64,000 bases of DNA, taken from assembly GCA_002404155.1 (NCBI GenBank), contig DHJC01000081.1, positions 4,520 to 68,519 of the forward strand, written 5' to 3'. The stretch comes from Chloroflexi bacterium UBA4730. GTDB taxonomy: Bacteria > Chloroflexota > Limnocylindria > P2-11E. Positions 5,141 to 42,659 of the stretch are shown here, in pieces. A program made the position numbers and the translations under genes. The notes beneath the pieces are model-generated. The model saw only the letters and a program-made list of their open reading frames with translations, did not search any database and was not told the origin of the DNA. How positions within the stretch are numbered: the stretch's first letter is position 1; the number at the start of each line of letters is the position of its first letter.

Positions 5141-6198
5141 CGGACCAGTCCCGCGGCCAATCGATCGGAGCCTGCCGCGCCTTCGCGGACCGGGTCGGCC
5201 GCCGGGAGGCCCGTCGCGGTCCCGGCCGCTTGGACCGCGCGCCTGGCCGCGCCCAGGTCGAGCGCGCTGGTGTTGAGCGCGATCCCGACGACGGGGACCC
5301 GCGTGCCCGCCGCGCGGCTCCAGGTGGCCGCATCCTCGTAGAGCCGCACGAGCTCGGGAAGCGGCTTCAGCGAGAGCCCGGGGAATCCTTTGACCTCCGC
5401 ACGCGACGCGTCGTGGCACAGGACCAACAGGTCCGGGGCGCTGCCGTGCAGCAGCCCGAGGGTCACGCCGGAGAAGCCGGGATGCGTGAGCGAGCCCTGG
5501 CCCTCGACGACGACCCAGTCGGCCCGCTCGGCCGCGTCGCAGACCATTTGCTCGGCGGCACCCGCGATGAAATCCGCGACCACCGCATCGATGGAGATGC
5601 CCTCGCCCGCGATCGCGATCCCGGTCTGACCGGTGGCGACGAACGCGGCGCGCTTCCCAGCGCGCTCCAGCGCGCGCACGAGCTCGAGGGCGACCGTCAT
5701 CTTCCCCACTGCGGCGTCGGAGCCCACCGTAAGCACCACGCACGTTGCCGCTCGCCGCTGACGATGGCCGCCGATCGGGAGATCCGCCGGCGGTTCGCGG
5801 AGCTCGCGGACCCGACCGCCGCCCCGCTGCGCGGCGTCGCGCAAGGCCGGGTCCGCCAGCACGCGCTCGTGCAGCCCATTCCAGACCTCGAGGCCCCTGC
5901 CCAGCGCGTCTGCGAGCAGCGGCCGGTATGAGTCGGCGATGCGGCCCCCTGGCGCGGCCGTGCCGATCAGCAGGACCGTGGCGCCGCGGGCGATCGCCTC
6001 GAGGATCGTGCCAACGACCGGCACGCCCCGGCCGACGCCGATCGCGTCCGCGCTATCCGTCCCGGCACGCGTCGAGTCGACGACGGCAACGACCGGATAC
6101 GGCGCGTACCGCAGGACCCCGATCGCCGTCTTCGCCGTCTGGGGCGTGAACAGGCCCTCGGCGAGGATCGCGACGCGGCGCGGGTCAGACACCGGCAT
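5137..6198 (-). CDS. DUF1611 protein (DgcN-like N-acetyltransferase family)
   Basis: 353 aa with the characteristic VLTVGSDAAVGKMTVALEL P-loop-like motif of DUF1611. Adjacent to an enolase-superfamily epimerase, as in dgcN-dgcA pairs. Confidence 0.75.
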   Translation of the reverse strand: MPVSDPRRVAILAEGLFTPQTAKTAIGVLRYAPYPVVAVVDSTRAGTDSADAIGVGRGVPVVGTILEAIARGATVLLIGTAAPGGRIADSYRPLLADALGRGLEVWNGLHERVLADPALRDAAQRGGGRVRELREPPADLPIGGHRQRRAATCVVLTVGSDAAVGKMTVALELVRALERAGKRAAFVATGQTGIAIAGEGISIDAVVADFIAGAAEQMVCDAAERADWVVVEGQGSLTHPGFSGVTLGLLHGSAPDLLVLCHDASRAEVKGFPGLSLKPLPELVRLYEDAATWSRAAGTRVPVVGIALNTSALDLGAARRAVQAAGTATGLPAADPVREGAAGSDRLAAGLVR

Positions 6199-9318: not shown

Positions 9319-10500
9319 TCAGCGGTCGTCCCCCCGGGCCACGAACGGGAGGCGCCGCAGGGTGCTCTCCTCCTCGCCGGTGAGCGGAAGCGTTCCCTGC
9401 TCCGCGCTCCCAAGCGGCCGTCCAACAGCTTCGATCGCGTCCGCGGTCCGATTGAGACCGTGCAGGGAGTCGGTGTGCTTCTTTGTCGCGTTGCGCAGGT
9501 GGTCACCGAGGGTGTCGTACGCCGAGCGGAACTTTTCCAGCTCGAGCGCCGCGCGCCGCAGTCCTTCCTGCAGCTCGCGCGACCGCTCCTCCATCGCGAG
9601 ACCGCGTAGTCCGAGCGAGACCATTTGCAGATACGCCACCAGCGTGTTCGGCGAGGTCGGAAGTACCCGACGCTCCGCGCAGTAATCGCTCAGGTCCGAT
9701 TCGGCGATCGCGGCTTCGTAATACACGCCTTCCGCGGGGAAGTACAAGAACGCGTAGTCGATGGTTCCTTCCGCGGGCGAGATGTACTTCGCGACCGCGT
9801 CGACGTGGCGCTTCACCTGCTGGATGAAGGCCCGCCGCCGCGCGGCGCGCTCCGCATCGTCACGTGCCGTGCTCATGGCATTGAACGACTCGATCGGGAA
9901 TTTCGCGTCGATCGGCACGAGGCGTCCCGCGAACCGCACCACCGCGTCGACGCGCGAGCCGTCGCGGTAGCCGTACTGGAGCTCGAACGCGCCGACCGGG
10001 AGGTTGTCCGCGAGCACGCGCTCGAGCATCACCTCGCCGAACCCGCCACGCAGCTTCGGCGCGCGGAAGAGGTCGTGCAGCGACCCGACGTCCTTCGCCA
10101 GCTCGCCGATCCGCGCGCTCTGCTCGCCCAGGGTCGCGAGCTTCACCCCGAGCTCGCCGAGGGTGCGCTGCGTCGAGCCGGACTGCGTGAGCAGCTGCTG
10201 CTCGGTGGCGCCGAGCGAACGTTGCACGTCGCTCCGCAGCTCGGCGAGGGACTGGGTGTTGGCGCCGCGAAGCTCGGCCATGGTCTGCTGAAGGAGCGCT
10301 ACGTCTGCGCGCATCCCCTGCTGCAGGAGCGCGAGCGGGGTATCCGCAGGGCGGCGCCGCGCCAGGACGACGGCGACGACGACCGCGGCGATGGCCGCGG
10401 CCGTGATCGCGGCGGCGAGGATCTCCACGCTCGAATCCTCCTTCCCTCGGCCGATCGGCAGCCCGCCCATGCTAGAACGAGTGTTCGATTGATACCACAA
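9319..10500 (-). CDS. rmuC: DNA recombination protein RmuC
   Basis: 393 aa with an N-terminal TM segment, a coiled-coil region and the RmuC nuclease-like C-terminus (FPIESFNA...VAYLQMVS). Confidence 0.85.
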   Translation of the reverse strand: MWYQSNTRSSMGGLPIGRGKEDSSVEILAAAITAAAIAAVVVAVVLARRRPADTPLALLQQGMRADVALLQQTMAELRGANTQSLAELRSDVQRSLGATEQQLLTQSGSTQRTLGELGVKLATLGEQSARIGELAKDVGSLHDLFRAPKLRGGFGEVMLERVLADNLPVGAFELQYGYRDGSRVDAVVRFAGRLVPIDAKFPIESFNAMSTARDDAERAARRRAFIQQVKRHVDAVAKYISPAEGTIDYAFLYFPAEGVYYEAAIAESDLSDYCAERRVLPTSPNTLVAYLQMVSLGLRGLAMEERSRELQEGLRRAALELEKFRSAYDTLGDHLRNATKKHTDSLHGLNRTADAIEAVGRPLGSAEQGTLPLTGEEESTLRRLPFVARGDDR

Positions 10501-28814: not shown

Positions 28815-30048
28815 GCGAGCGGCTGCACGTCGAGCAACTGCTCGGCCGGGAAACCCGAGCGGCGCACGAGCGCGAGGACCTCCTCGGCATGCGCGGTATC
28901 GCGGGTGTCCACGATGACGTCGAGGCCGACGCGTCCGAGCGTCGTGTACGGCCCGAGCCGATCGATCCCGACGTGAAGGATGTTGATGTGCTCGCCACCG
29001 AGGATGCCAGTGAGCTCGTGCAGCTGTCCGGGCCGGTCGTCGAGCCACGTCCGGAACGCGAGGTACCGGCCGGCGCTCGCGAGTCCTTGCTGCAGGACCT
29101 TGCCGAGCAGGTTCGGGTCGATGTTGCCTCCACTGACCACGACGCCGAGGCGCTTGCCCGCGAGATCGCCCGGCGCGTCGAGGACCGCGGCCAGGCCCGC
29201 GGCGCCGGCGGCCTCGGCAAGCAGCTTGTGTCGCTCGAGGAGCAGGACGATCGCGCGCGCGATGGCCTCGTCCGTCACGATCCGCATCGTCACGCCGTGG
29301 GCCCGGGCGATCGCTACGGTGCGCGCCGCCGGCTCGCGAACAGCGATGCCGTCCGCGATCGTCGCCGCACCGCCGCGGGTCGGCGAGCCGGTGGCGAGGG
29401 TATCCGCGAACGCGCGAGCGCCGGCGGCTTGCACCCCGATGAGCCGCGCGCCGGACCGGGCCTCTGCGATCGCCAGCGCGGTGCCGGCAAGGAGGCCACC
29501 GCCACCCACCGGCACGACGATCGCGTCGAGGTCGGGAAGGTCCTCGAGCATCTCTCGCGCGACGGTCCCCTGCCCCGCGATCACCGTCGGATCGTCGAAC
29601 GCGTGGATGTAGACCGCGCCACGCTGCGCCGCGAGCTCCCGCGCGGCCGCGAACGCTTCGTCGTAGCCGTCGCCCGTCACGACGACGTCCGCGCCAGCGC
29701 GCTGGATCGCGGTCAGCTTCGCGAGCGGCACGCCGCGCGGAAGGACCACGCACACCCGGATCGCGAGCATCGCCGCGGCCACCGCTACGCCCTGCCCGTG
29801 ATTGCCGGCGGATGCCGTCACCACGCCGCGGGCCCGTTCCACGCCGTCGAGGGCGAGGAGGCGCGCCATCGCGCCACGCAGCTTGAACGCACCGGTCCGC
29901 TGGAGATTCTCGAGCTTGAGGTGGACCTCGCAGCCTGCCAGCGCCGAGAAGTCCGGCGAGTGCACGAACGGCGTCCGCTCGACACGGCCGGCGATCGCCG
30001 CGGCGGCAGCGGCCACGCTGGTCGCGGCAACCGGCGCGGCAGCGACGC

Positions 30049-30052
<4 letters not shown>
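28811..30052 (-). CDS. ilvA: Threonine ammonia-lyase (biosynthetic threonine dehydratase) with C-terminal ACT-like domain
   Basis: 413 aa with the PLP-Lys motif [15 protein letters not shown], a GxGGGG loop and a C-terminal regulatory domain. Confidence 0.9.
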
Positions 30053-33470
<3,418 letters not shown>

Positions 33471-33517
33471 CTAGACGACCGCGCGCAGAGCCGTGTCGAT
33501 GACCCGGACGCGCCGGC

Positions 33518-33712
33518 TCATATCCACATCGGCAGGTCGGAATCAGGGTGGCGGTAGGCCTCGACACAGATCGTCATGAGCTGGATGTCGCTGAGCTCTT
33601 CGGGGACGAAGCCATAGCGCGTGACGAGCGCATGGGCCTGGCCGAGCTGTTCGTCACCGAAGCGCATGCCCAGGCGCGCGAGCCTTTCGCGGAATAGCTC
33701 CTTGAGGTCCAC
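33518..33712 (-). CDS. Hypothetical 64-aa protein between ilvC and leuA
   Basis: GTG start shares one nucleotide with the ilvC TAG stop. GC3-rich codons. No recognisable domain ([46 protein letters not shown]...). Confidence 0.35.
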   Translation of the reverse strand: MDLKELFRERLARLGMRFGDEQLGQAHALVTRYGFVPEELSDIQLMTICVEAYRHPDSDLPMWI

Positions 33713-34761
33713 TACACGACCTCCGCGGGCTCGCGCTGTTGCGTGGCGGCCGCGGCCTCCGGACCGAATTCGCGCTTCGGGAGCCAGGGCATCATCGCTC
33801 GCAGCGAGCGGCCGACACGCTCGATCTGCGAGTCCCGCTCCTTCGCGCGCGTCGCGAGCAGCTCGGGCGCGCCGTTTCGGGCTTCGGCGATCCAGCGCTT
33901 CGCGAAGCTGCCGTCACGGACCTCCGCGAGGATGTCGCGCATCGTCTGACGCACTCGCTCGTCGATGACCCGCTTTCCCGACACGTAGTCCCCGTACTCC
34001 GCCGTGTCGCTCACCGAGTAGCGCATGTACGAGAGCCCGCCTTCATACATCAGGTCGACGATGAGCTTCATCTCGTTCAGGCACTCGAAGTACGCGATCT
34101 CGGGTTGATAGCCGGCGTCGACGAGGGTCTCGAAGCCGGCCTTCACCAGCTCGGAGATGCCGCCGCAGAGCACCGCCTGCTCACCGAACAGGTCCGTCTC
34201 GACCTCCTCGGCGAACGTCGTCTCGATGACGCCCGCCCGCGTCGAGCCGACGGCGCGGGCGTACGCGAGGGCGGTGCGCTTCGCGTGACCGCTGGCGTCC
34301 TGATGCACCGCGACGAGCGCCGGCACGCCCTTGCCTTCGACGAACAGCTCGCGCATCCGGTGCCCCGGGGCCTTCGGCGCGATGAGCACGACGTCGATGT
34401 CCGGTGAGGCCTCGATCTCCTTGAAGTGCACGGAGAACGCGTGCGCGACCACGATCGTCTTGCCGCGGCCGAGCGACGACGCGATGGTCTCGTACACCGC
34501 GCGGTGTTTCGGATCCGGGACGAGGATGACCACGATGTCGGCGTTGCGCGCCGCGTCGGCGACCTCGCGCACATCGAAGCCGTCACGCTCCGCGACCGCC
34601 CAGCTCTTGCTGCCGGCGGCAAGGCCGATCACGACCTCGCACCCGCTGTCGCGAAGGTTCTGGGCGTGGGCGTGGCCTTGGCTCCCGTACCCGATGACCG
34701 CGATGGTCTTTCCCGCGAGCGCTCGGGGGTCCGCGTCGTTGTCGTAGTAGATCGTGGCCAT
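33712..34761 (-). CDS. ilvC: Ketol-acid reductoisomerase
   Basis: 349 aa with the NADP-binding [17 protein letters not shown] motif and class-I KARI length. Confidence 0.95.
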
Positions 34762-34781
34762 CTGCTGCCTCCTCAGTTACT

Positions 34782-35027
34782 TCAGGCTGCGTCGTCGCGC
34801 AGCCGCGCGGTGCGCACATCGACAAGGGTGCTGAACTGCTTGAGCGCAAGCGCCGCTTCCTGCGGCACGGCGCCGGCGCGGATGCGGACCGACCAGCGGC
34901 CATCGCCCGCGATGTCGGCGCAGAAGGACCTGACGCCGAGGCCCCGTCGGCGCACGACCGAGAGGACGCGCTCGATTGCACCCGGGACCGCGTCGACGGT
35001 GAGCTCGAAGGTGTGCTGCGGGTCCAT
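34782..35027 (-). CDS. ilvN: Acetolactate synthase small (regulatory) subunit, short ACT-only form
   Basis: 81 aa from MDPQHTFELTVDAVPGAIERVLSVVRRRG..., an ACT fold. ATG shares one nucleotide with the ilvB TGA. Shorter than the usual ~165-aa IlvN. Confidence 0.65.
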   Translation of the reverse strand: MDPQHTFELTVDAVPGAIERVLSVVRRRGLGVRSFCADIAGDGRWSVRIRAGAVPQEAALALKQFSTLVDVRTARLRDDAA

Positions 35028-36736
35028 CAGCGCGCCGGCTCCTCGATGAGGTCCGCGTTCGCGCCGCCCGGCGGCACGATCGGCCACACATTGGCCTCGC
35101 GCTCGATGCGGATGTCGAGCACCACCGGCCCCGGATGCGCCTTCGCTCGCGAGAGCGCCGGGCCGAGCTCGCTGCGCCGCTCGACGCGAAGACCGAGCAC
35201 GTCGTACGCGTCGGCCAGCTTCACGTAATCCGGGCTGCTGATCGGCGTCTGCGAGATCCGGCCGTCGTGGAAGAGCTGCTGCCACTGGCGGACCATGCCG
35301 AGGTACCCGTTGTTGAGGATCGCGAGCTTCACCGGCGTGCTCTCTTGCACGGCCGTCCCGAGCTCGTGGATCGTCATCTGGGCCCCGCCGTCGCCGGCGA
35401 TCGCCCAGACCTCCGATGACGGGCGACCCAGCTGCGCGCCGATCGCGGCCGGGAGGGCGTAGCCCATGGCCCCGAGGCCGCCGGACGTGAGGAAGCGGTC
35501 GGGGTGCGTGAGCCGGAGATGCTGTGCCGCCCACATTTGGTGCTGGCCGACATCCGCGACGAAATACGCGTCGTCGCTCGCCGTCTCGCGGATGGCGCGC
35601 ACGACGACCCGCGGCGGGAGCTCGACCCGATCCTCGTACGCCGCGAGGCGCGGTCGGGTGCGCTCCGCCGTCGCGCGGGCGCGCCACTCGGGACGGGAGA
35701 CGGGCTCGAGGCGCGCCGCGAGCGCGAACAGCACGGCCGCGGCGTCGGCGACGATGCCGATCGCGGTCGGGACGTTCTTTCCGATCTGGGTCGGGTCGAT
35801 GTCCGCATGGATGATCTGGGCCCCGGCCGCGAAGGCGCTGATCTTCCCGGTCACTCGATCATCGAACCGAAGGCCCACTCCGAGGAGCACATCCGCCTCG
35901 TTCACCATCCGGTTGGCGTTCGCGCTGCCGTGCATCCCAAGCATCCCGGACGCGAGCGGATGATCCTCGGGCAGCGCCCCGATCCCGAGCAGCGTCGTGA
36001 CCACCGGCGCGTCGATCCGTTCGGCGAGGGCCCGGAGCTCGGCGTGCGCTCGGGCGAGCCGGACCCCGTGGCCCGCGACGATCACCGGACGCTTCGCGCG
36101 AGCGAGGAGGGTCGCCGCGCGGTCGAGCTCCCGTGGATCGGCCCCGGACGGAGCCCGAACCTCGGGGGGTGGTGTCGACCGCGCGGCGAGCATGCGGATC
36201 TGGATGTCTTTGGGAATGTCGACGACGACCGGGCCGGGACGGCCCGCGCGGGCGACCGCGAACGCGCGATGGATCGTCGGCTCGATCTCGTCGACGCGGC
36301 GGACGAGATACGAATGCTTCGTGATCGGGCCGGTCAGGCCGATGACGTCGGTCTCCTGGAACGCGTCGCGGCCCATGAGCGGCATGGAGACCTGGCCCGT
36401 GATCGCGACCACAGCAACGCTGTCCATGTACGCGCAGGCGAGTCCCGTGACGAGGTTCGTCGCGCCTGGACCCGAGGTCGCCACGCACACCCCGACGCGC
36501 CCGGTCGCGCGCGCGTAGCCGTCGGCCATGTGGGCGGCGCCCTGCTCGTGTCGGACGAGCACGTGGTGGATGCGCGGGTGATCGGGCAACGCGTCGTAGA
36601 GCGGGAGGCACGCGCCGCCGGGATAGCCGAATACGACATCCGCGCCCGCATACTCCAGCGCGCGCCACACGAGATCGGCGCCGCGGTGTGCGACGGCATC
36701 CGCCTCGGGCATCGCCGTCTTCGCCAGTGTCGCCAT
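35027..36736 (-). CDS. ilvB: Acetolactate synthase large subunit
   Basis: 569 aa, ThDP enzyme with the GDG...NN motif (IAGDGGAQMTIHELGTAVQESTPVKLAILNN) and an FAD-binding middle domain. Confidence 0.9.
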   Translation of the reverse strand: MATLAKTAMPEADAVAHRGADLVWRALEYAGADVVFGYPGGACLPLYDALPDHPRIHHVLVRHEQGAAHMADGYARATGRVGVCVATSGPGATNLVTGLACAYMDSVAVVAITGQVSMPLMGRDAFQETDVIGLTGPITKHSYLVRRVDEIEPTIHRAFAVARAGRPGPVVVDIPKDIQIRMLAARSTPPPEVRAPSGADPRELDRAATLLARAKRPVIVAGHGVRLARAHAELRALAERIDAPVVTTLLGIGALPEDHPLASGMLGMHGSANANRMVNEADVLLGVGLRFDDRVTGKISAFAAGAQIIHADIDPTQIGKNVPTAIGIVADAAAVLFALAARLEPVSRPEWRARATAERTRPRLAAYEDRVELPPRVVVRAIRETASDDAYFVADVGQHQMWAAQHLRLTHPDRFLTSGGLGAMGYALPAAIGAQLGRPSSEVWAIAGDGGAQMTIHELGTAVQESTPVKLAILNNGYLGMVRQWQQLFHDGRISQTPISSPDYVKLADAYDVLGLRVERRSELGPALSRAKAHPGPVVLDIRIEREANVWPIVPPGGANADLIEEPAR

Positions 36737-36764
36737 CGCGGTCGCCTCCTTCTCTCAAGCTGGA

Positions 36765-36800
36765 AATGAAGGAGCCTCCCGTTGCCGGGAGGCCTTCGCT
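36765..36800 (-). terminator. Attenuator terminator hairpin upstream of ilvB (GAAGGCCUCCCGG-CAAC-GGGAGGCUCCUUC + AUUUCC)
   Basis: Perfect 8–12-bp GC-rich stem 30 nt upstream of the ilvB RBS AGAAGGAGG. Its 5' half is complementary to the leader-distal CUGGGAGGC segment. Confidence 0.6.
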
Positions 36801-36823
36801 CGTCAGGTGCGTGGTGTGTGCCG

Positions 36824-36898
36824 CTAGCCTCCCAGCCGTCTCCCGTCGCCCTCAATAAGGACGATGCCGATAAGCGAAACGACGACGAGGCGGCGCAT
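36824..36898 (-). CDS. ilvB attenuator leader peptide MRRLVVVSLIGIVLIEGDGRRLGG (24 aa)
   Basis: ATG at 36898, TAG at 36824. 12 of 24 residues are Val/Leu/Ile. Followed by an antiterminator segment (CUGGGAGGC) and the terminator hairpin. Confidence 0.6.
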   Translation of the reverse strand: MRRLVVVSLIGIVLIEGDGRRLGG

Positions 36899-36987
36899 CT
36901 GAACGGACCATGACGGACGCGCGCAGGCTGCGTCAACGGCCCACCGAAAGTCGGTGCACGTTGCACAGCCATGACGGCCAAGACCGA

Positions 36988-37683
36988 TCACGACGCGAGC
37001 TGGTCGAGAGCGGTCTGGCCCAACACGGCGAGGTACAGCGTCATGCGCTGGTCGGCGTCCTCGAGGTCAGCGCCCGTGAGCTCGCCGATCCGCTTCAGGC
37101 GCTGTCGCACGGTGTTCCGGTGCAGGAACAGCGCCCGGGCCACGCCGTTCACGCTGCCGTGGGCGCGCAGGAACTCCTCCAGGGTGCGCAGCTCGTCGCG
37201 CTGCGCGCGTTCGGCGAGCGGGCCGAGGATCGCTTTACAGAAGCTGCGGATCTCTTCTGTCGGCCGGCCGAGCACGAAGCAGTACGGGCCAAGGTCGCCG
37301 AACGCGGTGATGCGGCCATGGCCATACAGCGCGCGGCCCAGTCGTACCGCCTGTTCCGCATGCAGCGCCACGAGGCGCAGCGGGTGCTGGCGGTCGCGCG
37401 GTCCGCCAACCCCCACGGACAGCGTCGTGTCGCCGAGGCGCTCGCCGACCGTGGTTCGCAGCGCCTCGGCCGCGACGCGGGGATCGCTTTCCGCGGAGAG
37501 CCGCTGGACCGCGATGATCGTCGGGCCGCGCGTGCCGATGAGCCGGGCGTCCGGCGGGAGCGCAGCAAGGACCGCACGTTGCAGCAGGCGCATGCCGCTC
37601 GACGGCGCGCCCTGGAACGCCAGCGCGTACGTCCGCGATGCCGCGGTCTCCAGCGGCGTCGCTCGCTCCGGCCGCGGGTCCAT
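36988..37683 (-). CDS. PucR/CdaR-family transcriptional regulator (C-terminal PucR HTH)
   Basis: 231 aa with the C-terminal LRTLEEFLRAHGSVNGVARALFLHRNTVRQRLKRIGELTG motif. Confidence 0.75.
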   Translation of the reverse strand: MDPRPERATPLETAASRTYALAFQGAPSSGMRLLQRAVLAALPPDARLIGTRGPTIIAVQRLSAESDPRVAAEALRTTVGERLGDTTLSVGVGGPRDRQHPLRLVALHAEQAVRLGRALYGHGRITAFGDLGPYCFVLGRPTEEIRSFCKAILGPLAERAQRDELRTLEEFLRAHGSVNGVARALFLHRNTVRQRLKRIGELTGADLEDADQRMTLYLAVLGQTALDQLAS

Positions 37684-37707
37684 CGCCGCGCTCCTTTCTC
37701 CGCCTGG

Positions 37708-37740
37708 AAACGAAAAGACCTCCCGTTCCTGGGAGGTCCT
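37708..37740 (-). terminator. Attenuator terminator hairpin upstream of the PucR-family regulator
   Basis: 8-bp GC stem GACCUCCC/GGGAGGUC followed by a U-rich tract. Leader-distal GCUGGGAGG can pair with its 5' half as an antiterminator. Confidence 0.55.
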
Positions 37741-37766
37741 CTGCGGTGTCGGTCTCGGTGGTCGCG

Positions 37767-37853
37767 CTACGCGGTGTTGGCGTTCCTCCCAGCATCGTTC
37801 AAGCCCCCGATAAGGAGCTCAATCACGATGATGTGAAGGACGACGGACCGCAT
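37767..37853 (-). CDS. Second BCAA-rich leader peptide MRSVVLHIIVIELLIGGLNDAGRNANTA (28 aa) upstream of the PucR regulator
   Basis: ATG at 37853, TAG at 37767. Run of VVLHIIVIELLI. Downstream terminator GACCUCCCAGGAACGGGAGGUC + UUUUCGUUUCC at ~37708–37740. Near-duplicate of the ilvB leader region. Confidence 0.6.
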   Translation of the reverse strand: MRSVVLHIIVIELLIGGLNDAGRNANTA

Positions 37854-37938
37854 CGCCAGAACGGTACCACCGCTTGCCTGCTCGGCCAAGCCTCGATCCA
37901 CGACGCGGTCCGGGATCGATACCCGACCGGGGGCGGCG

Positions 37939-38580
37939 CTAGTAGGTCCGGCCACGCTGCCGCGCGATGTCGAAGCTGGCCGTTCTGGCGACCGCCATGA
38001 CCGCCATGACCCCGGCCTGCACAGGGTCACTGACGATGAGATCCGCCGCCTTCGGCGCCGAACCGGCCATATTCAGGCTCACCACCAGAATGCCGTGCCG
38101 CCGGACCTCTTCGACCGCGGCGGTGATCTCGCCGCCCATCAGCGCGCCCGCGAGCACGAGGGCCACGGCCCGCGGCAGTCGCGCGACCGCGCGGACCGCC
38201 GCCGCGAGGGTCTGCTCCCCCACGATCGGGATCGTGTCGATGCTGATCTTCTCGCCGCGGATGTTGTGGCGGTCGGCCTCCGAGATCGCGCCGAGGGCCA
38301 CCTGGCCGACCTGGGCCCCGCCGCCCACAACGATGATCCGCTTGCCGTAGACCTCGGCCATCGTGGGCACGATCTCGACCTGCGCGAGTACATCGAGTGC
38401 CCGGAGATCGGCGACCAGTCGGTCGATGTCCGCGCCGGACGGTAGGTCGATCTCGACATGGACCCGGGCGCGCTCGCCGCGCTCGGGGATCTCGATCCCG
38501 GTGATGTTCCCGCTGTGGGCAAGGATGACAGTCGTGATCGCGTGGAGCGTGCCCGGCCGGTCCACGCCTTCGCACACGAG
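37939..38580 (-). CDS. ACT-domain protein with C-terminal Rossmann-like (CoA-binding/DRTGG-like) domain
   Basis: N-terminal ACT segment VCEGVDRPGTLHAITTVILAHSGNITGIEI...; C-terminal RIIVVGGGAQVGQVALGAI... Start taken as GTG at 38580; upstream ORF part is Arg-rich artefact. Confidence 0.55.
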   Translation of the reverse strand, partial: LVCEGVDRPGTLHAITTVILAHSGNITGIEIPERGERARVHVEIDLPSGADIDRLVADLRALDVLAQVEIVPTMAEVYGKRIIVVGGGAQVGQVALGAISEADRHNIRGEKISIDTIPIVGEQTLAAAVRAVARLPRAVALVLAGALMGGEITAAVEEVRRHGILVVSLNMAGSAPKAADLIVSDPVQAGVMAVMAVARTASFDIARQRGRTY

Positions 38581-38759
38581 CGCGACGCAGCTCGGCGCGG
38601 TGGCGCCGGGTCGCTCAGCCTGCGGCAATCGACGTAGTAAGCACCTCGACACCGGCCGTCGCAAGCCCCGTGCACGGTGCACACCGCGACGATGGACCCG
38701 GGGCCGAGGATCGTCGATGACGCGCGTTGGGCACGTGCTCCCATCGATAGACTCGACGC

Positions 38760-39578
38760 GTGCCCATCTGCGCGATCCTCTTCGACCTCGACAACACCCT
38801 GCTGCTCGAGGACGAGGCGACGGAGGACGCACTCCGACAGACGTGCGCGCTCGCGGCACGGCGGGCCGGCGTCGACGCGCGGCCCGTCCAGGTAGCGGCA
38901 CAGGAGGCCGCGGACGCGCTGTTCCGCGCTTCGCCGACCTTCGCCTACGCCGACGCGATGGGAATCTGGTGGGGCGAAGCCCTCTGGGGCGATTTTGCCG
39001 GCGACCAGAAGGGCCTCGTCGCGCTGCGAGCCTTCGTACCCGGCTTCCGCCGCGAGGTCTGGAGCCGCGCGCTCTCAGCCGCGGCCGTCACCGACGAAGC
39101 GCTCGTCGACGAGCTGGCGGCGGCGTACCCCGCCTTGCGCCGCGCGCTCCGCCCGATCGACCCCGAGGCGGACGCCACGCTCGACGACCTCGGCCGCGAT
39201 CACCGGCTCGCACTGGTGACCAACGGCGCGCCCGACCTACAGCGCGAAAAGCTCGCAGGGACCACGCTCGCCGGGCACTTCGCCGCGATCGTAATCTCGG
39301 CCGAGGTCGGCGCCGGGAAGCCCGACCCGCGGATCTTCCGTGCCGCGCTGGATGCGCTCGACGTCGCGAGCACGGATGCGGTGATGGTCGGCGACAGCCT
39401 GGAGCGAGACATCGCCGGTGCCCGGCGCGCGGGGCTGCGCAGCGTCTGGCTCGACCGCGCGGGCGGCGGCGCGAGCGGCGGCCCGGTCGTCCCTGACGCC
39501 CGGATCCAAACGCTCGGCGAGCTGCGCACATCGTTGATCGGCCTCGAGCGCGTCGACGCGTTCCCGCAGCCGGCGTGA
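38760..39578 (+). CDS. HAD-superfamily hydrolase (subfamily IA)
   Basis: Motif I AILFDLDNTLL, motif II LVTNG, motif III K...GDS.ERDI. Confidence 0.8.
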   Translation: MPICAILFDLDNTLLLEDEATEDALRQTCALAARRAGVDARPVQVAAQEAADALFRASPTFAYADAMGIWWGEALWGDFAGDQKGLVALRAFVPGFRREVWSRALSAAAVTDEALVDELAAAYPALRRALRPIDPEADATLDDLGRDHRLALVTNGAPDLQREKLAGTTLAGHFAAIVISAEVGAGKPDPRIFRAALDALDVASTDAVMVGDSLERDIAGARRAGLRSVWLDRAGGGASGGPVVPDARIQTLGELRTSLIGLERVDAFPQPA

Positions 39579-40771
39579 AGGGCGCGCTGCCGCGCGGCTT
39601 CCGCGACATCCTGCCCACCGAAGCACGTGAGCTCCAGGCGATCGAGCGCACGCTCATGAGCGCCTTCGCGCAGTACGGGTACGTGCCGTTGGAGCCGCCG
39701 ACCGTGGAGTTCGCAGAGAGCGCGGTCACGGTCGACGAGCGGCGGACGCTGCGGTTCCTCGATCGGGACGGCCGGCTCCTCGCCCTCCGCCCGGACGTGA
39801 CGACTGCGGTGGCGCGGGTGGTCGCGCAGCGCTACCGGCAGGCCGACGCCACGCTGCGGCTCGCGTACTTCGCGCCGATCTTCCGTGAAGAGGCCTCGAT
39901 GCGCGGATCCGAACGCGAGTACGACCAGGCGGGCGTCGAGCTCATCGGCGACCCAACGCTGCGCGCGGATGCCGAGGTGATCGCGCTCCTCGCCGACGCG
40001 CTCGCGCGGTGCGGGCTGCTCGCGGCGGACATCGACATCGGCCACGTCGGCTTCGTCGATGGCTTCATCGCGGAGCTGCCGGCCGACGCGCGCGATGCGG
40101 CCGGCGCCGCCGCGCGTTCGGGCGACCTGGTCGGCACCGTCTCGCTCGCGCGCGCCGCCGGGATGAGAGCGGTCCGGATCGCGGCGCTCGAGCGCGGCCT
40201 CCGGCATCGCTCGACCGATCTCGCCGCTCTCCGCGCCGACGCGCCCGCCGCGTCGCAGCGCGCCCTGGACACGCTCGATACGCTCCGGCCGCTCCTCGAG
40301 GCGGCCGGCGTCGGCGGGGCCATCCGGTTCGATCTCGGATTCATCCCGGCGCTCCCCTATTACACCGGCGTCGTGTTCCAGGTCACCGTCCCGGATCTCG
40401 GATTCCCCATCGCCACCGGCGGACGGTACGACGGGCTCCTCGCCCGGTTCGGCGCCGATCGCGCGGCCACCGGCTTCGGTATCGCGGTCCCGCATCTGCA
40501 CCAGGCCCTCGTGACGGCCGGTTGGCAGGCGCCGGCGGGATCGCCACTGCTCGTGCTCGCGCCGGATGACGGCGACGATGCGGCCACCCTCAGCGTCGCC
40601 GCGGCCCTGCGCGCCGCGGGGATCGCGGTCGCGATCGGGGACGTCGCCGAGAGCGCGGGGCAGGACGTCCGCCGCGCGCGGGTGATCGACGAGGCGCACC
40701 TCGAATACGAAGGCGTCGTGCGCGCGCTCGACGCGGTCATCGCAGTATTGACCGCTGGCGAGCCCCGGTGA
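39575..40771 (+). CDS. hisZ: ATP phosphoribosyltransferase regulatory subunit HisZ
   Basis: 398 aa HisRS-like catalytic core without an anticodon-binding domain (LPRGFRDILP..., motif 2/3 remnants). 4-nt overlap with short-form hisG. Confidence 0.85.
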   Translation: MKGALPRGFRDILPTEARELQAIERTLMSAFAQYGYVPLEPPTVEFAESAVTVDERRTLRFLDRDGRLLALRPDVTTAVARVVAQRYRQADATLRLAYFAPIFREEASMRGSEREYDQAGVELIGDPTLRADAEVIALLADALARCGLLAADIDIGHVGFVDGFIAELPADARDAAGAAARSGDLVGTVSLARAAGMRAVRIAALERGLRHRSTDLAALRADAPAASQRALDTLDTLRPLLEAAGVGGAIRFDLGFIPALPYYTGVVFQVTVPDLGFPIATGGRYDGLLARFGADRAATGFGIAVPHLHQALVTAGWQAPAGSPLLVLAPDDGDDAATLSVAAALRAAGIAVAIGDVAESAGQDVRRARVIDEAHLEYEGVVRALDAVIAVLTAGEPR

Positions 40772-41409
40772 GGCCGCTCCGCATCGCCCTGGCCCAGGGC
40801 ACATTGTTGGCCGACACCCGCGTCGCGCTCGCCGCAGCAGGCTTCGCGACCGACGCCCTCGCCGACGGCGGCCGCCGCCTCGTCGTCCCGGGCGCGGATG
40901 TCGAGTACGTGCTCGCCCGTCCGAGCGACGTGCCGACCCACGTCGCTCACGGTGCCGCGGACGTCGGCATCGTCGGGAAGGACGTGCTGCTCGAGAGCGA
41001 CGCCGAGGTCCTCGAGCTCGTTGATCTCAAGTACGGGCGGTGCCGCTTCGTCGTCGCGGCGCCCACGGACTTCATCGATCGCTCCCTGGACGAGTACCGG
41101 CACCTCGGCTCGCTCGAGGTCGCGACGAAGTACCCACGCGTCGCCGAACGACACTTCCAAGGCCGCGGGATCCAGGTCGAGATCATCAAGCTGAGCGGGT
41201 CGGTGGAGCTTGCCCCGCAGGTCGGCCTCGCCGATTGGATCGTCGACCTCGTGAGCACCGGTCGGACCCTGAAGGAGAACGGCCTCGCGATCATCGAGGA
41301 GATCGCGGTCTGCACCGCGCGGCTCATCGCGAACCGGGTGAGCTACGCGCGCGATCGCGAGCGCATCGCCGCGCTCGCGTCCAAGCTCGAAGCGTGGGCT
41401 GCGCGATGA
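40768..41409 (+). CDS. hisG: ATP phosphoribosyltransferase, short form
   Basis: 213 aa HisG_S with a PRPP-binding loop (DLVSTGRTLKENGL). Confidence 0.9.
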   Translation: MRPLRIALAQGTLLADTRVALAAAGFATDALADGGRRLVVPGADVEYVLARPSDVPTHVAHGAADVGIVGKDVLLESDAEVLELVDLKYGRCRFVVAAPTDFIDRSLDEYRHLGSLEVATKYPRVAERHFQGRGIQVEIIKLSGSVELAPQVGLADWIVDLVSTGRTLKENGLAIIEEIAVCTARLIANRVSYARDRERIAALASKLEAWAAR

Positions 41410-42659
41410 GCGGCCAAATCAGCCGGATCGGCGACCTCGCGGCGTTTCGCCGGGACGTGACGCGCCGTCGCGCGACCGCCGTCTTCGACGCGGCGGTGCT
41501 CCGGGCGACGCGACGAACGATCGCGGACGTCCGCCGGCGCCGCGATACCGCTGTCCTCACGAACGTGCGCCGGTTCGACCACGCCGGAGCGCGGGCCGGT
41601 GATCTCTGGATCGACGCGCGAACCCTTCGGTCCGCGGCCCGACGGTGCCCGCCCGAGCTGCGATCGGCGCTCGATCGCTCGTACGAGGCGATCCTCGCAT
41701 TCCACCGCAAGCAGCGGCCGACGCCGATCGCGCATCGCGGCGCCGCGTTCCGCGAGGTGCTCGTGCCACGGCCGCTCGCGCGGGTCGGGGGGTGCGTCCC
41801 ACGTGGCACGGTCGGGTATCCCTCGACCGCGCTGATGATCGGCGTGCCCGCTCGGGTTGCGGGTGTCGGCGACCTCGTGCTCGTGTCGCCGATGCCCGCC
41901 GACGGCAGCGTGGATCCGGCGCTCGCCTACGCGGCGACGAAGATCGGCGCGCGCGGTCTCTACCGCGCCGGCGGAGCGGCCGCGGTCGCGGCGCTCGCCT
42001 ACGGCACCCGGACGCTCGAGCGCGTCGACAAGATCGTCGGGCCCGGCAACGCGTACACCACCGCCGCGAAGTGGCTGGTCTCGGCCGACGTCGGGATCGA
42101 CGCGCTTCAGGGGCCGAGCGAGCTCGTGGTCATCGCATCGAAGGACGCGGATCCCGCGGCGATCGTCCTCGATCTCGAGGCTCAGGCCGAGCACGGCGGC
42201 CGGCCGTTCGCCGCGCTGCTCAGCGACGACGAGGGGATCCTCGCCGTGGTGCGTGCCGTCGTCTCCCGTCTCGACCGTGGCGATCGCGCGATCGGCCTGT
42301 ACCGCGTGCCGTCGCTCGCCGCGGCCGTGGAGGCTGCGGCGTTCGCGGCGCCGGAGCACCTCCACCTCGCGGGGACCCGCGCTGCGCGGCTCGTCGGGCG
42401 GACCCGCAACGCCGGCGCGGTCTTCGTCGGCACCCGGACGGCCGTGGCCTTCGGCGACTACGTCGCCGGCTCGAATCACTGCCTGCCGACGGGCGGCACG
42501 GCGCGGTGGGCATCGCCGCTACGGGTCGAGGACTTCGTCCATTGGACGACGGTGGTGACCGCGGGTCCGGACGTCGCCGCGGCCGCACGCGCCGGTGCGG
42601 CGATCGCGAAACACGAGGGGATGGACTTCCACGCGGCCTCGATGGAGCTGCGCGGCTAG
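41406..42659 (+). CDS. hisD: Histidinol dehydrogenase
   Basis: 417 aa from MSGQISRIGDL..; ATG overlaps the hisG stop. Conserved Zn/NAD residues (GPGNAYTTAAK, HCLPTGGTAR). Confidence 0.9.
   Translation: MSGQISRIGDLAAFRRDVTRRRATAVFDAAVLRATRRTIADVRRRRDTAVLTNVRRFDHAGARAGDLWIDARTLRSAARRCPPELRSALDRSYEAILAFHRKQRPTPIAHRGAAFREVLVPRPLARVGGCVPRGTVGYPSTALMIGVPARVAGVGDLVLVSPMPADGSVDPALAYAATKIGARGLYRAGGAAAVAALAYGTRTLERVDKIVGPGNAYTTAAKWLVSADVGIDALQGPSELVVIASKDADPAAIVLDLEAQAEHGGRPFAALLSDDEGILAVVRAVVSRLDRGDRAIGLYRVPSLAAAVEAAAFAAPEHLHLAGTRAARLVGRTRNAGAVFVGTRTAVAFGDYVAGSNHCLPTGGTARWASPLRVEDFVHWTTVVTAGPDVAAAARAGAAIAKHEGMDFHAASMELRG

Follow-up and report, generated by a model that had tools for sequence, protein, structure and literature searches.

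We analysed a 64-kb stretch of DNA from Chloroflexi bacterium UBA4730 (G+C content 70%), hereafter referred to as the window, in which two short leader regions precede the acetolactate synthase gene ilvB and a gene for a PucR-type regulator (pucR). Both leaders are likely to be ribosome-mediated transcription attenuators of one lineage-specific family, and the regulator would then raise the initiation of ilv transcription. The lineage is uncultured and all results presented here are computational. In each leader a small open reading frame (sORF) rich in Val, Ile and Leu (V/I/L) codons carries GGGAGG at its end and is followed by a hairpin in which CCUCCC faces a second GGGAGG. The order on the minus strand is a gene for a protein with ACT and DUF5612 domains, the leader of pucR (leader 2), pucR, the leader of ilvB (leader 1), ilvB, ilvN, ilvC, an open reading frame (ORF) of 64 amino acids (aa), leuA and ilvD.

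Anatomy of the two leaders

An earlier note on this DNA had proposed two V/I/L-rich sORFs, each followed by a hairpin with a U-rich tail and preceded by a complementary GGGAGG. When the minus strand was read, exactly these peptides were obtained, and both hairpins with their tails and upstream complements were located at the positions listed below. P1 denotes a hairpin within the sORF, region 2 the predicted 5' strand of the antiterminator, and regions 3 and 4 the two strands of the terminator.

Leader 2 and pucR
37884-37889, minus: -35-like TTGGCC of the putative PucR-leader promoter, proposed from conservation
37861-37869, minus: extended -10-like TGGTACCGT of the same putative promoter, proposed from sequence conservation; the sORF ATG follows 7 nt on
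37853 to 37767, minus: PucR leader sORF, MRSVVLHIIVIELLIGGLNDAGRNANTA and stop; 11 V/I/L residues, rare codons CTT (twice), ATT and TTG
37799-37822, minus: P1 hairpin within the PucR sORF, UUGAGCUCCU-UAUC-GGGGGCUUGA, a possible pause hairpin
37785-37792, minus: region 2, CUGGGAGG, predicted to pair with CCUCCCAG of region 3
37716-37739, minus: PucR terminator hairpin (regions 3 and 4), GGACCUCCCAGGAACGGGAGGUCU, that is GGACCUCCC-AGGAAC-GGGAGGUCU, with tail UUUUCGUUUCC
37706-37715, minus: U-rich tail UUUCGUUUCC; with the two stem-closing U, UCUUUUCGUUUCC
36988-37683, minus: pucR, regulator of 231 aa with the PF13556 helix-turn-helix (HTH) and the PF17853 GGDEF-like domain
Leader 1 and ilvB
36931-36936, minus: -35 TTGACG of the putative ilvB-leader promoter
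36907-36913, minus: -10-like TCATGG/CATGGT of the same putative promoter; the ATG follows 8-9 nt later
36898 to 36824, minus: ilvB leader sORF, MRRLVVVSLIGIVLIEGDGRRLGG and stop; 11 V/I/L residues, rare codons GTT, CTT (twice) and ATT
36846-36864, minus: P1 hairpin within the ilvB sORF, UCGUCCUU-AUU-GAGGGCGA
36826-36835, minus: region 2, CUGGGAGGCU, predicted antiterminator 5' strand, overlapping the stop codon; CUGGGAGG lies at 36835-36828
36773-36794, minus: ilvB terminator hairpin, GGCCUCCCGG-CAAC-GGGAGGCU, also found by the terminator scan
36763-36772, minus: ilvB terminator tail, CCUUCAUUUC
35027-36736, minus: ilvB, biosynthetic acetolactate synthase large subunit (TIGR00118, 694 bits, in the Pfam and NCBIfam searches), heading ilvB-ilvN-ilvC-(64-aa ORF)-leuA-ilvD

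The conserved boxes upstream of the sORFs suggest that each leader has its own promoter. A sigma-70 consensus scan of positions 36600-39000 returned no promoter, since the candidates for the -10 box differ from TATAAT, and the promoters were taken from conservation instead. As the start codons lie 7-9 nt past the -10-like box and are not preceded by a Shine-Dalgarno (SD) sequence, the sORFs are probably leaderless. The stop codon follows GGGAGG by 1 nt in the ilvB leader and by 15 nt in the PucR leader, and the distance from GGGAGG to the hairpin is about 40 nt in both. The downstream gene has a separate SD and start codon 33-38 nt beyond the terminator. In the PucR leader the terminator, a 9-bp GC-rich stem followed by UCUUUUCGUUUCC, stands directly upstream of the regulated gene; the 33 nt between it and the pucR start codon leave no room for an independent promoter, which bears out the placement of pucR behind its leader.

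The exact hairpin motif occurred at only two sites in 64 kb, both directly before start codons, and this low number ruled out CCUCCC...GGGAGG as a general terminator of the lineage. A covariance model of 128 elements scored 98 and 88 bits at these sites (both were included in its training set), as compared to 18.9 bits for the next-best place in the window, and the remaining 340 rows of this window search at E ≤ 10 were noise below 19 bits. Relative to shuffled sequences, the leader folds had z values of -2.07 (ilvB) and -2.32 (PucR). Aligned locally, the two leaders reached a best score of 42, whereas 1000 dinucleotide shuffles gave 18.6 ± 2.5 and the maximum against 1947 random genomic windows was 31. 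The leaders are indeed paralogous, as had been suggested, in that both belong to one attenuator family. However, the description of one as a near-copy of the other was overstated: their global identity is about 53% (133 of 252 columns), and the clearly similar part comprises about 56 nt covering the terminator, the U-tract and the ribosome-binding site. A comparison with known leader models, also proposed in the earlier note, matched no leader family, since the Rfam 15 scan of positions 30000-42000 at E ≤ 10 revealed no relevant match but only chance matches to sR45, HTT-AS1 and asX3. The sR45 match (an archaeal snoRNA; 38896-38939, plus strand; 23.4 bits against a gathering score of 40, E 0.099) most likely arose by chance in GC-rich DNA.

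Conservation of the leaders in related genomes

With a profile of 23 PucR homologues we retrieved 78 genome loci, nearly all from Limnocylindria or other Chloroflexota assemblies. The window protein itself had 236 homologues named Limnocylindria or Chloroflexota, one of which, in a Chloroflexi assembly, was 100% identical. The hairpin with its U-rich tail was detected upstream of PucR homologues of every clade, at 44-75% identity, in 68 of 72 loci by an automated scan. Two further loci (L035 and L048) carry the leader as seen outside the automated pass, which brings the count to at least 70 of 72; L067 was ambiguous. The leader was not found in L076 (31% identity, another phylum), nor in L077 and L078, which come from other phyla and were too short for the 72-locus tally. 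The sORF and hairpin were also present upstream of ilvB, or of a divergent thiamine pyrophosphate (TPP) enzyme, in relatives. Thus, the leader-PucR arrangement, the conservation of which the earlier note had proposed to check, is conserved in relatives, and the ilvB leader is kept in those relatives that have pucR-ilvBNC. This conservation across the PucR clades implies that the coupling of the PucR family to the leader is ancestral and family-wide and not a local duplication; a decaying local duplicate was ruled out for the PucR leader on the same grounds.

In 19 loci pucR is directly followed by canonical ilvBNC, and in many others by an operon of the divergent TPP enzyme. This second type of branched-chain amino acid (BCAA) operon (L045 6883-12615; L019 9641-12490) consists of the TPP enzyme, ilvC, a citramalate/isopropylmalate-synthase-like gene and ilvD. 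The enzyme is 20-24% identical to ilvB and is not accompanied by ilvN, and the operon has its own V/I/L leader and palindrome.

All classes of leaders share one layout (alignment A3): promoter, regulatory codons, P1, GGGAGG at the sORF end, stop codon, spacer and terminator. In the putative promoters a -10-like hexamer is separated by 17 nt from a -35 that reads TTGACG or TTGACC, or TTGGCC in clade A; the clade A promoter is conserved as cTTGGCc-N17-tGGTACCGT-N7-ATG. The stop codon occurs 1-15 nt after GGGAGG in all classes, within the ribosome footprint of region 2, and the spacer measures 32-49 nt, with a mode of 41-43. The ilvB leader peptide is conserved as M(Q/R)RLVVVVLIGIVLIEGDGRRLGG, and the PucR leader peptide tracks the PucR clade, being MRSVVLHIIVIELLIGG.NDAGR...TA in clade A (MRSVVL(H/G)IIVIELLIGG.NDAGR...TA in L002-L012), MRRVSLPIVIAELLLTRSGRTLGGGS in clade 2, M.LHIVPMLVVVLPILG.DASRSGGSV in clade B and (V)FQPIIVVVPVALLIG...TLGGE.T in clade C. 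The leader of clade D, MLYRCCAMAMPEAHCTCVCAMGDHGLGGGS, is rich in Cys (4-5 Cys, 3-4 Met) and not in V/I/L, with the same terminator architecture; here pucR is divergent from an isopropylmalate/isocitrate dehydrogenase gene (L028 5833-5975, L033 5845-5987 and about 20 other loci). In L005, two attenuators stand in tandem before one pucR (5490-5633 and 5846-5990), with a small conserved ORF between them.

Pairing and codon evidence for the proposed RNA switch

The layout had been described as that of classical ribosome-mediated attenuation, and this description is supported by conservation, by compensatory changes in the terminator, by covariation of the antiterminator flanks and by constrained folds. 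RNAalifold, applied to a MAFFT alignment of 128 homologous elements, recovered only the terminator, in which 4 of the 9 pairs showed compensatory changes (G-C 100, A-U 21 and G-U 7; G-C 105 and A-U 16; C-G 119 and U-A 7). P1 was scored sequence by sequence because it is out of register between the classes; the hairpin at this position in the 128 leaders (93 distinct sequences) had a mean z of -2.29. As regards the antiterminator, 84 and 70 of 95 unique combinations allow pairing between the two positions that flank region 2 on its 5' side and the first two bases of the loop, as compared to 72.5 ± 2.4 and 58.9 ± 2.9 in permutations, none of which (0 of 2000) reached the observed values. In 27 of the 28 cases with C, the partner was G; U was opposed by A in 38, by G in 19 and by C in 3. 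Since sequence relatedness inflates such statistics and the controls do not remove it, we regard the covariation figures as supportive and not as proof. The hexamer GGGAGG is read as A-G-R in the PucR-A leaders and as L-G-G in the others, which indicates that it is conserved as RNA.

Constrained folding of both window leaders reproduced the alternative terminator and antiterminator folds that the earlier note had envisaged. With a ribosome placed at the stop codon the terminator was kept. When codon 5 or 8 was placed in the A site of a stalled ribosome and the transcript ended before region 4, the helix between regions 2 and 3 (2:3) was formed. The calculated energies of the isolated 2:3 duplexes were -24.6 kcal/mol (ilvB) and -17.8 kcal/mol (PucR), and those of the terminators -19.4 and -17.4 kcal/mol, respectively.

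The V/I/L codons vary mostly in a way that preserves the encoded residue type. Entropy at codon position 2 (U) was 0.08-0.42, as opposed to 0.77-0.97 at position 1, and changed V/I/L codons remained V/I/L/M in 48 of 58 cases (ilvB), 28 of 37 (PucR-A) and 64 of 66 (TPP class). Judged by six neighbouring genes, rare codons occur in both window leaders: CTT accounts for 6% of the Leu codons in these genes and TTG for 2%, ATT for 3% of Ile and GTT for 3% of Val.

A scan of metagenomes for the three hexamers uncovered further leaders of this type: a Leu-rich one (..YLDLLGLFLLSLLRPLGG..) before leuA (L166), a His leader (MRRLHHAHSS..) before a hisZ-like gene (L157/L158), a V/I/A/F-rich one before ilvE (L112), a Pro/Ile/Leu-biased one before a class I/II aminotransferase gene (L100) and a Met/Pro-rich one before a threonine-synthase-family gene. 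In the genome loci, too, a Met-rich leader (MAQRISMSMPMAPMAGPATRLGG and stop, or MRFALIPPMPIAPMPG..) precedes a threonine-synthase-family (thrC-like) gene (TIGR00260, 235 bits). This arrangement was seen in L033 (9605-11280), L028 (9585-9727), L154 and L193, where a ThiS-family ORF comes next after the gene, a pairing that recalls thiocarboxylate-dependent homocysteine synthesis. As the composition of the leader matches the downstream pathway, the PucR leaders can be read as BCAA sensors and those of clade D as Cys sensors.

The regulator and its candidate operator

The PucR-type HTH (PF13556) was detected with E 1.7e-22 (79.4 bits, cut-off 27) and the GGDEF-like domain (PF17853) with 24.6 bits, just above the cut-off of 24.5. 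No N-terminal sensor domain was found: the GGDEF-like domain is preceded by about 15 residues, a truncated form of the family architecture, and neither Pfam and NCBIfam nor the AlphaFold2 (AF2) model revealed a further domain. In the AF2 model residues 16-135 adopt a GGDEF fold with a predicted local distance difference test score (pLDDT) of about 90, and the C-terminal helices are poorly modelled. The best Foldseek matches in the PDB were the C-terminal fragment of MabR/Rv2242 (9f80, E 2.3e-6) and BAD_0249 (3onq). Many PucR relatives are also only about 200 aa long. These features suggest that the leader acts as the sensor of this DNA-binding protein, which has no sensor domain of its own.

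A candidate operator for the regulator was recognised as an exact palindrome present twice in the window.

36954-36966, no strand assigned: palindrome GTGCAACGTGCAC (GTGCA-N3-TGCAC), 17 nt upstream of the ilvB-leader -35, with its centre near -60; candidate operator
38670-38682, no strand assigned: second exact copy of the palindrome, GTGCACCGTGCAC; a -35-like TTGCGA before the ACT+DUF5612 gene follows 5 nt downstream; putative operator

Both exact copies are promoter-proximal and flank pucR; with one mismatch allowed, 4 copies were counted, as compared to 1.46 ± 1.11 expected. The region upstream of the ACT+DUF5612 gene (38628-38760) also contains a -10-like TTACTA. This promoter and palindrome are conserved in L007, and a degenerate copy with one half-site changed (GTGCACCTTGAC) occupies the same place in L011. 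Of 36 attenuators of the ilvB/TPP type, 31 have the palindrome at a distance of 172-185 nt on the upstream side of the terminator. In the 646 kb of loci as a whole, 63 palindromes were counted, 51 of them at fixed offsets upstream of attenuators. The clade-C PucR promoters carry GTGCG-N3-CGCAC inside the -35/-10 spacer, and those of clade B a half-conserved copy there. At an ilvBNC leader that has no adjacent pucR (L156 and L185) the palindrome was not found. We consider it likely that the PucR-type protein binds this palindrome, the placement of which fits a putative activation of target promoters combined with autorepression.

Proposed mechanism and alternative explanations

The features described above fit the following scheme. 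When charged Val-, Ile- and Leu-tRNA are plentiful, the ribosome translating the sORF would reach the stop codon and mask region 2, so that CCUCCC (region 3) would pair with GGGAGG (region 4) and RNA polymerase would terminate at the U-rich tract. When BCAA-tRNA are scarce, the ribosome would stall at V/I/L codons, among them several rare ones, leaving region 2 free to pair with region 3 as soon as the latter has been made, and transcription would read through into pucR and, independently, into ilvBNC-leuA-ilvD. The regulator may then bind GTGCA-N3-TGCAC upstream of the ilvB-leader -35 and upstream of the ACT+DUF5612 gene and increase initiation there. BCAA starvation would thus act twice on ilv, raising initiation and lowering termination, which amounts to a coherent feed-forward loop. 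A feed-forward circuit had been proposed in the earlier note; we find it plausible, and the fixed position of the palindrome in ilvB-type promoters lends it indirect support. Transcripts reading out of pucR should end at the ilvB-leader terminator, which would double as the terminator of pucR, because they would enter the ilvB leader without a leaderless 5' end.

Several observations weigh against this scheme or against parts of it. Full-length leaders at equilibrium prefer the terminator even with a stalled ribosome, so that the choice has to be made kinetically, as happens in known attenuators. Behind the stem of the ilvB leader, 5 of the next 10 bases are U, which makes a weak U-tract. The hexamers GGGAGG/CCUCCC/GGGAGG are near-invariant while the flanking pairs and P1 covary, for which the model gives no reason, and another partner of the hexamers is possible. 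Because the element set was gathered by a regular expression for the motif, this apparent invariance is inflated: the variants missed by the expression differ by single bases (GGGGGG, CCUUCC, or CCUCUC paired with GAGAGG). In the Streptomyces coelicolor ilvB leader, replacement of the candidate regulatory codons had no effect (PMC1262725). As for the regulator, the PucR-A promoters have no palindrome, and GTGCA-N3-TGCAT stands before leaders of thrC-like and hisZ-like genes around which the retrieved DNA contained no pucR. Such near-identical palindromes at leaders without an adjacent pucR mean that the binder could be another regulator.

These points are shared unevenly by three alternative explanations. 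Both activators and repressors are known among PucR-family members, and the attenuators could function as described while the PucR-type protein represses, as negative feedback or as a brake on overshoot, controls unrelated genes or leaves the palindromes to another factor, so that no feed-forward on ilv would exist. The palindrome before a TPP-enzyme leader without an adjacent pucR (L169) and those before the thrC-like and hisZ-like leaders would agree with this, as would the PucR-A promoters without a site, the location of the clade B and C sites within the promoter spacer, a repressor-type position, and the precedent of MabR among PucR-family regulators (PMC11617747). However, the ilvB/TPP site, 17 nt upstream of a good -35 and combined with a weak -10, has an activation-type geometry; pucR adjoins canonical ilvB operons in 19 loci as well as many TPP-enzyme operons, and the palindrome is missing from an ilvBNC leader to which no pucR is adjacent. 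We therefore consider the lack of a feed-forward effect unlikely.

We give little credence to the second explanation, according to which the hexamers are read by a protein or by the 3' end of 16S rRNA, or the effect is on translation or Rho-dependent polarity, with the V/I/L peptide playing a minor role. It would account for near-invariant hexamers beside covarying pairs, for their resemblance to SD and anti-SD sequences and for the weak ilvB U-tract, and classical behaviour was likewise not observed for the S. coelicolor ilvB leader, a case which shows that a leader resembling an attenuator need not function in the classical way (PMC1262725). On the other hand, the downstream genes have their own SD past the U-rich tract, the stop codon is always within the ribosome footprint of region 2, the leader amino acids track the downstream pathway, and the sole paired hexamer variant seen, CCUCUC/GAGAGG, retains pairing. 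It is hardly credible that the sORFs are chance ORFs and that the hairpins serve as ordinary terminators or belong to a dispersed repeat. Spurious ORFs are common in GC-rich genomes and a perfectly palindromic hairpin could terminate upstream genes, but the window has just the two copies, both before start codons and with conserved promoters upstream of the sORFs, and the frame, length, stop position and V/I/L pattern of the sORF are maintained in about 70 loci, with conservation at codon position 2. Ribosome-mediated attenuation combined with activation of ilv by the regulator is thus the explanation we favour.

Comparison with known systems and wider significance

In the enterobacterial attenuators (trp, leu, ilvGMEDA, ilvBN, pheA, his and thr), regulatory codons in SD-led sORFs govern the competition between 2:3 and 3:4 helices, and the controlled genes encode enzymes. 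The window elements follow the same logic, but here such leaders stand before the genes of an entire transcription-factor family. The pheA attenuator also shares the hexamers of the window elements (GGGAGG..GGCCUCCC..GGGAGGCC) and matched the pattern GGGAGG-N30-50-GGCCTCCC-N2-12-GGGAGGCC in L079-L081, L088, L091 and others; these matches were rejected as unrelated look-alikes with coincidental or convergent use of the hexamers. A tRNA-Trp T-box together with a leader peptide governs anti-TRAP (rtpA) of Bacillus subtilis, and upstream ORFs (uORFs) govern yeast GCN4. As in the window, a cis-acting sensor of tRNA charging or translation sets the dose of a regulator of amino acid genes in both; the sensors (T-box RNA; uORF reinitiation) and the regulators differ, and the likeness is one of analogy and not of homology.

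The best-studied analogue is the leader attenuator of Mycobacterium tuberculosis ilvB1NC, which uses the same mechanism with experimental support (PMC13236596). An attenuator with a uORF is known for Corynebacterium glutamicum ilvBNC (PMC11857589, PMC10272879), and leaders of ilvB have been predicted in actinobacteria (PMC1262725). All these share with the window a BCAA-rich uORF, a ribosome-set choice between antiterminator and terminator, and a Rho-independent terminator before ilvB-ilvN-ilvC. The window differs from them in the GGGAGG/CCUCCC/GGGAGG layout, the extra internal hairpin, the probably leaderless sORF and the second copy on a regulator gene, and the Rfam scan detected no sequence or Rfam relationship to the known ilvB leaders. 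The ilvB leader of the window is unremarkable in kind, but the phylum, Chloroflexota, is new for it.

MabR/Rv2242, BAD_0249, B. subtilis PucR and Escherichia coli CdaR have in common with the window protein a GGDEF-like domain followed by a PucR-type HTH. MabR has an additional N-terminal globin-like domain (PMC11617747), whereas the window protein has no N-terminal sensor. No leader-peptide attenuator is reported for any of these known members, and a literature search for leader peptide, attenuation and PucR returned no paper combining them. In mycobacteria, the codon content of polycysteine leaderless sORF attenuators senses one amino acid (bioRxiv 10.1101/834739), and according to a 2005 survey the mycobacterial cys leaders have no conserved terminator hairpin (PMC1262725). 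The Cys-rich leaders of PucR clade D resemble these polycysteine leaders, but the downstream protein family is different. Cys-leader genes reportedly precede PF00480 (ROK) proteins (Lyubetsky et al., 2014, judging by the title); the placement of a putative regulator after a Cys leader may thus have a precedent.

What appears to be new is a family of transcription factors that is systematically placed behind leader attenuators, its paralogues differing in amino acid bias, together with a stereotyped, probably leaderless architecture with three near-invariant hexamers and a palindrome linking the regulator to attenuated operons. If the proposed scheme is correct, the charging status of tRNA sets the dose of a trans-acting activator on top of the cis attenuation of each operon; provided that the regulator acts at the ilv palindromes, starvation would be read twice and the signal could spread to other loci. 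Leader attenuation is here the conserved and apparently sole upstream control of a whole transcription-factor family, which suggests a route by which a transcription factor could lose its ligand domain and gain a sensor at the RNA level. Only tentatively do we extend this to a subfamily of sensor-less PucR-type proteins with a near-invariant HTH that would take their input through leader attenuators, with paralogues tuned to V/I/L or to Cys and with likely sites of GTGCA-N3-TGCAC/T before ilvB, TPP-enzyme, thrC-like and hisZ-like operons, all of them separately attenuated; bacteria would then possess an equivalent of GCN4-type general amino acid control. Limnocylindria are an abundant but uncultured class of soil and freshwater, and the stereotyped element can serve as a search key for their amino acid regulons, predicting the amino acid sensed by each operon or regulator.

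Neighbouring genes

37939-38628, minus: gene of the ACT+DUF5612 protein; the ORF is open to 38901, with TTG at 38628 as the likely start
33712-34761, minus: ilvC
33518-33712, minus: conserved small ORF, 64 aa in the window

An ACT-domain gene had been noted upstream of the PucR leader, and the domain search identified its product as an ACT+DUF5612 protein. Its start is probably TTG 38628 and not 38901, because relatives align only from residue 85-92 on; a HAD-like gene on the plus strand, which starts near 38760, points away from it. The small ORF between ilvC and leuA is conserved in nearly all loci with a length of 64-73 aa, and searches of Pfam, NCBIfam and the PDB with the 64-aa ORF gave no meaningful match. 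A paralogue with about 52% identity is located between the PucR attenuator and pucR in L004-L012, L022 and L024, and is absent from the window. ORFs of this kind lie in L004 at 5796-5987 and in L010 at 5796-5987 and 9894-10058. The 64-73-aa protein may be a partner of the PucR-type regulator.

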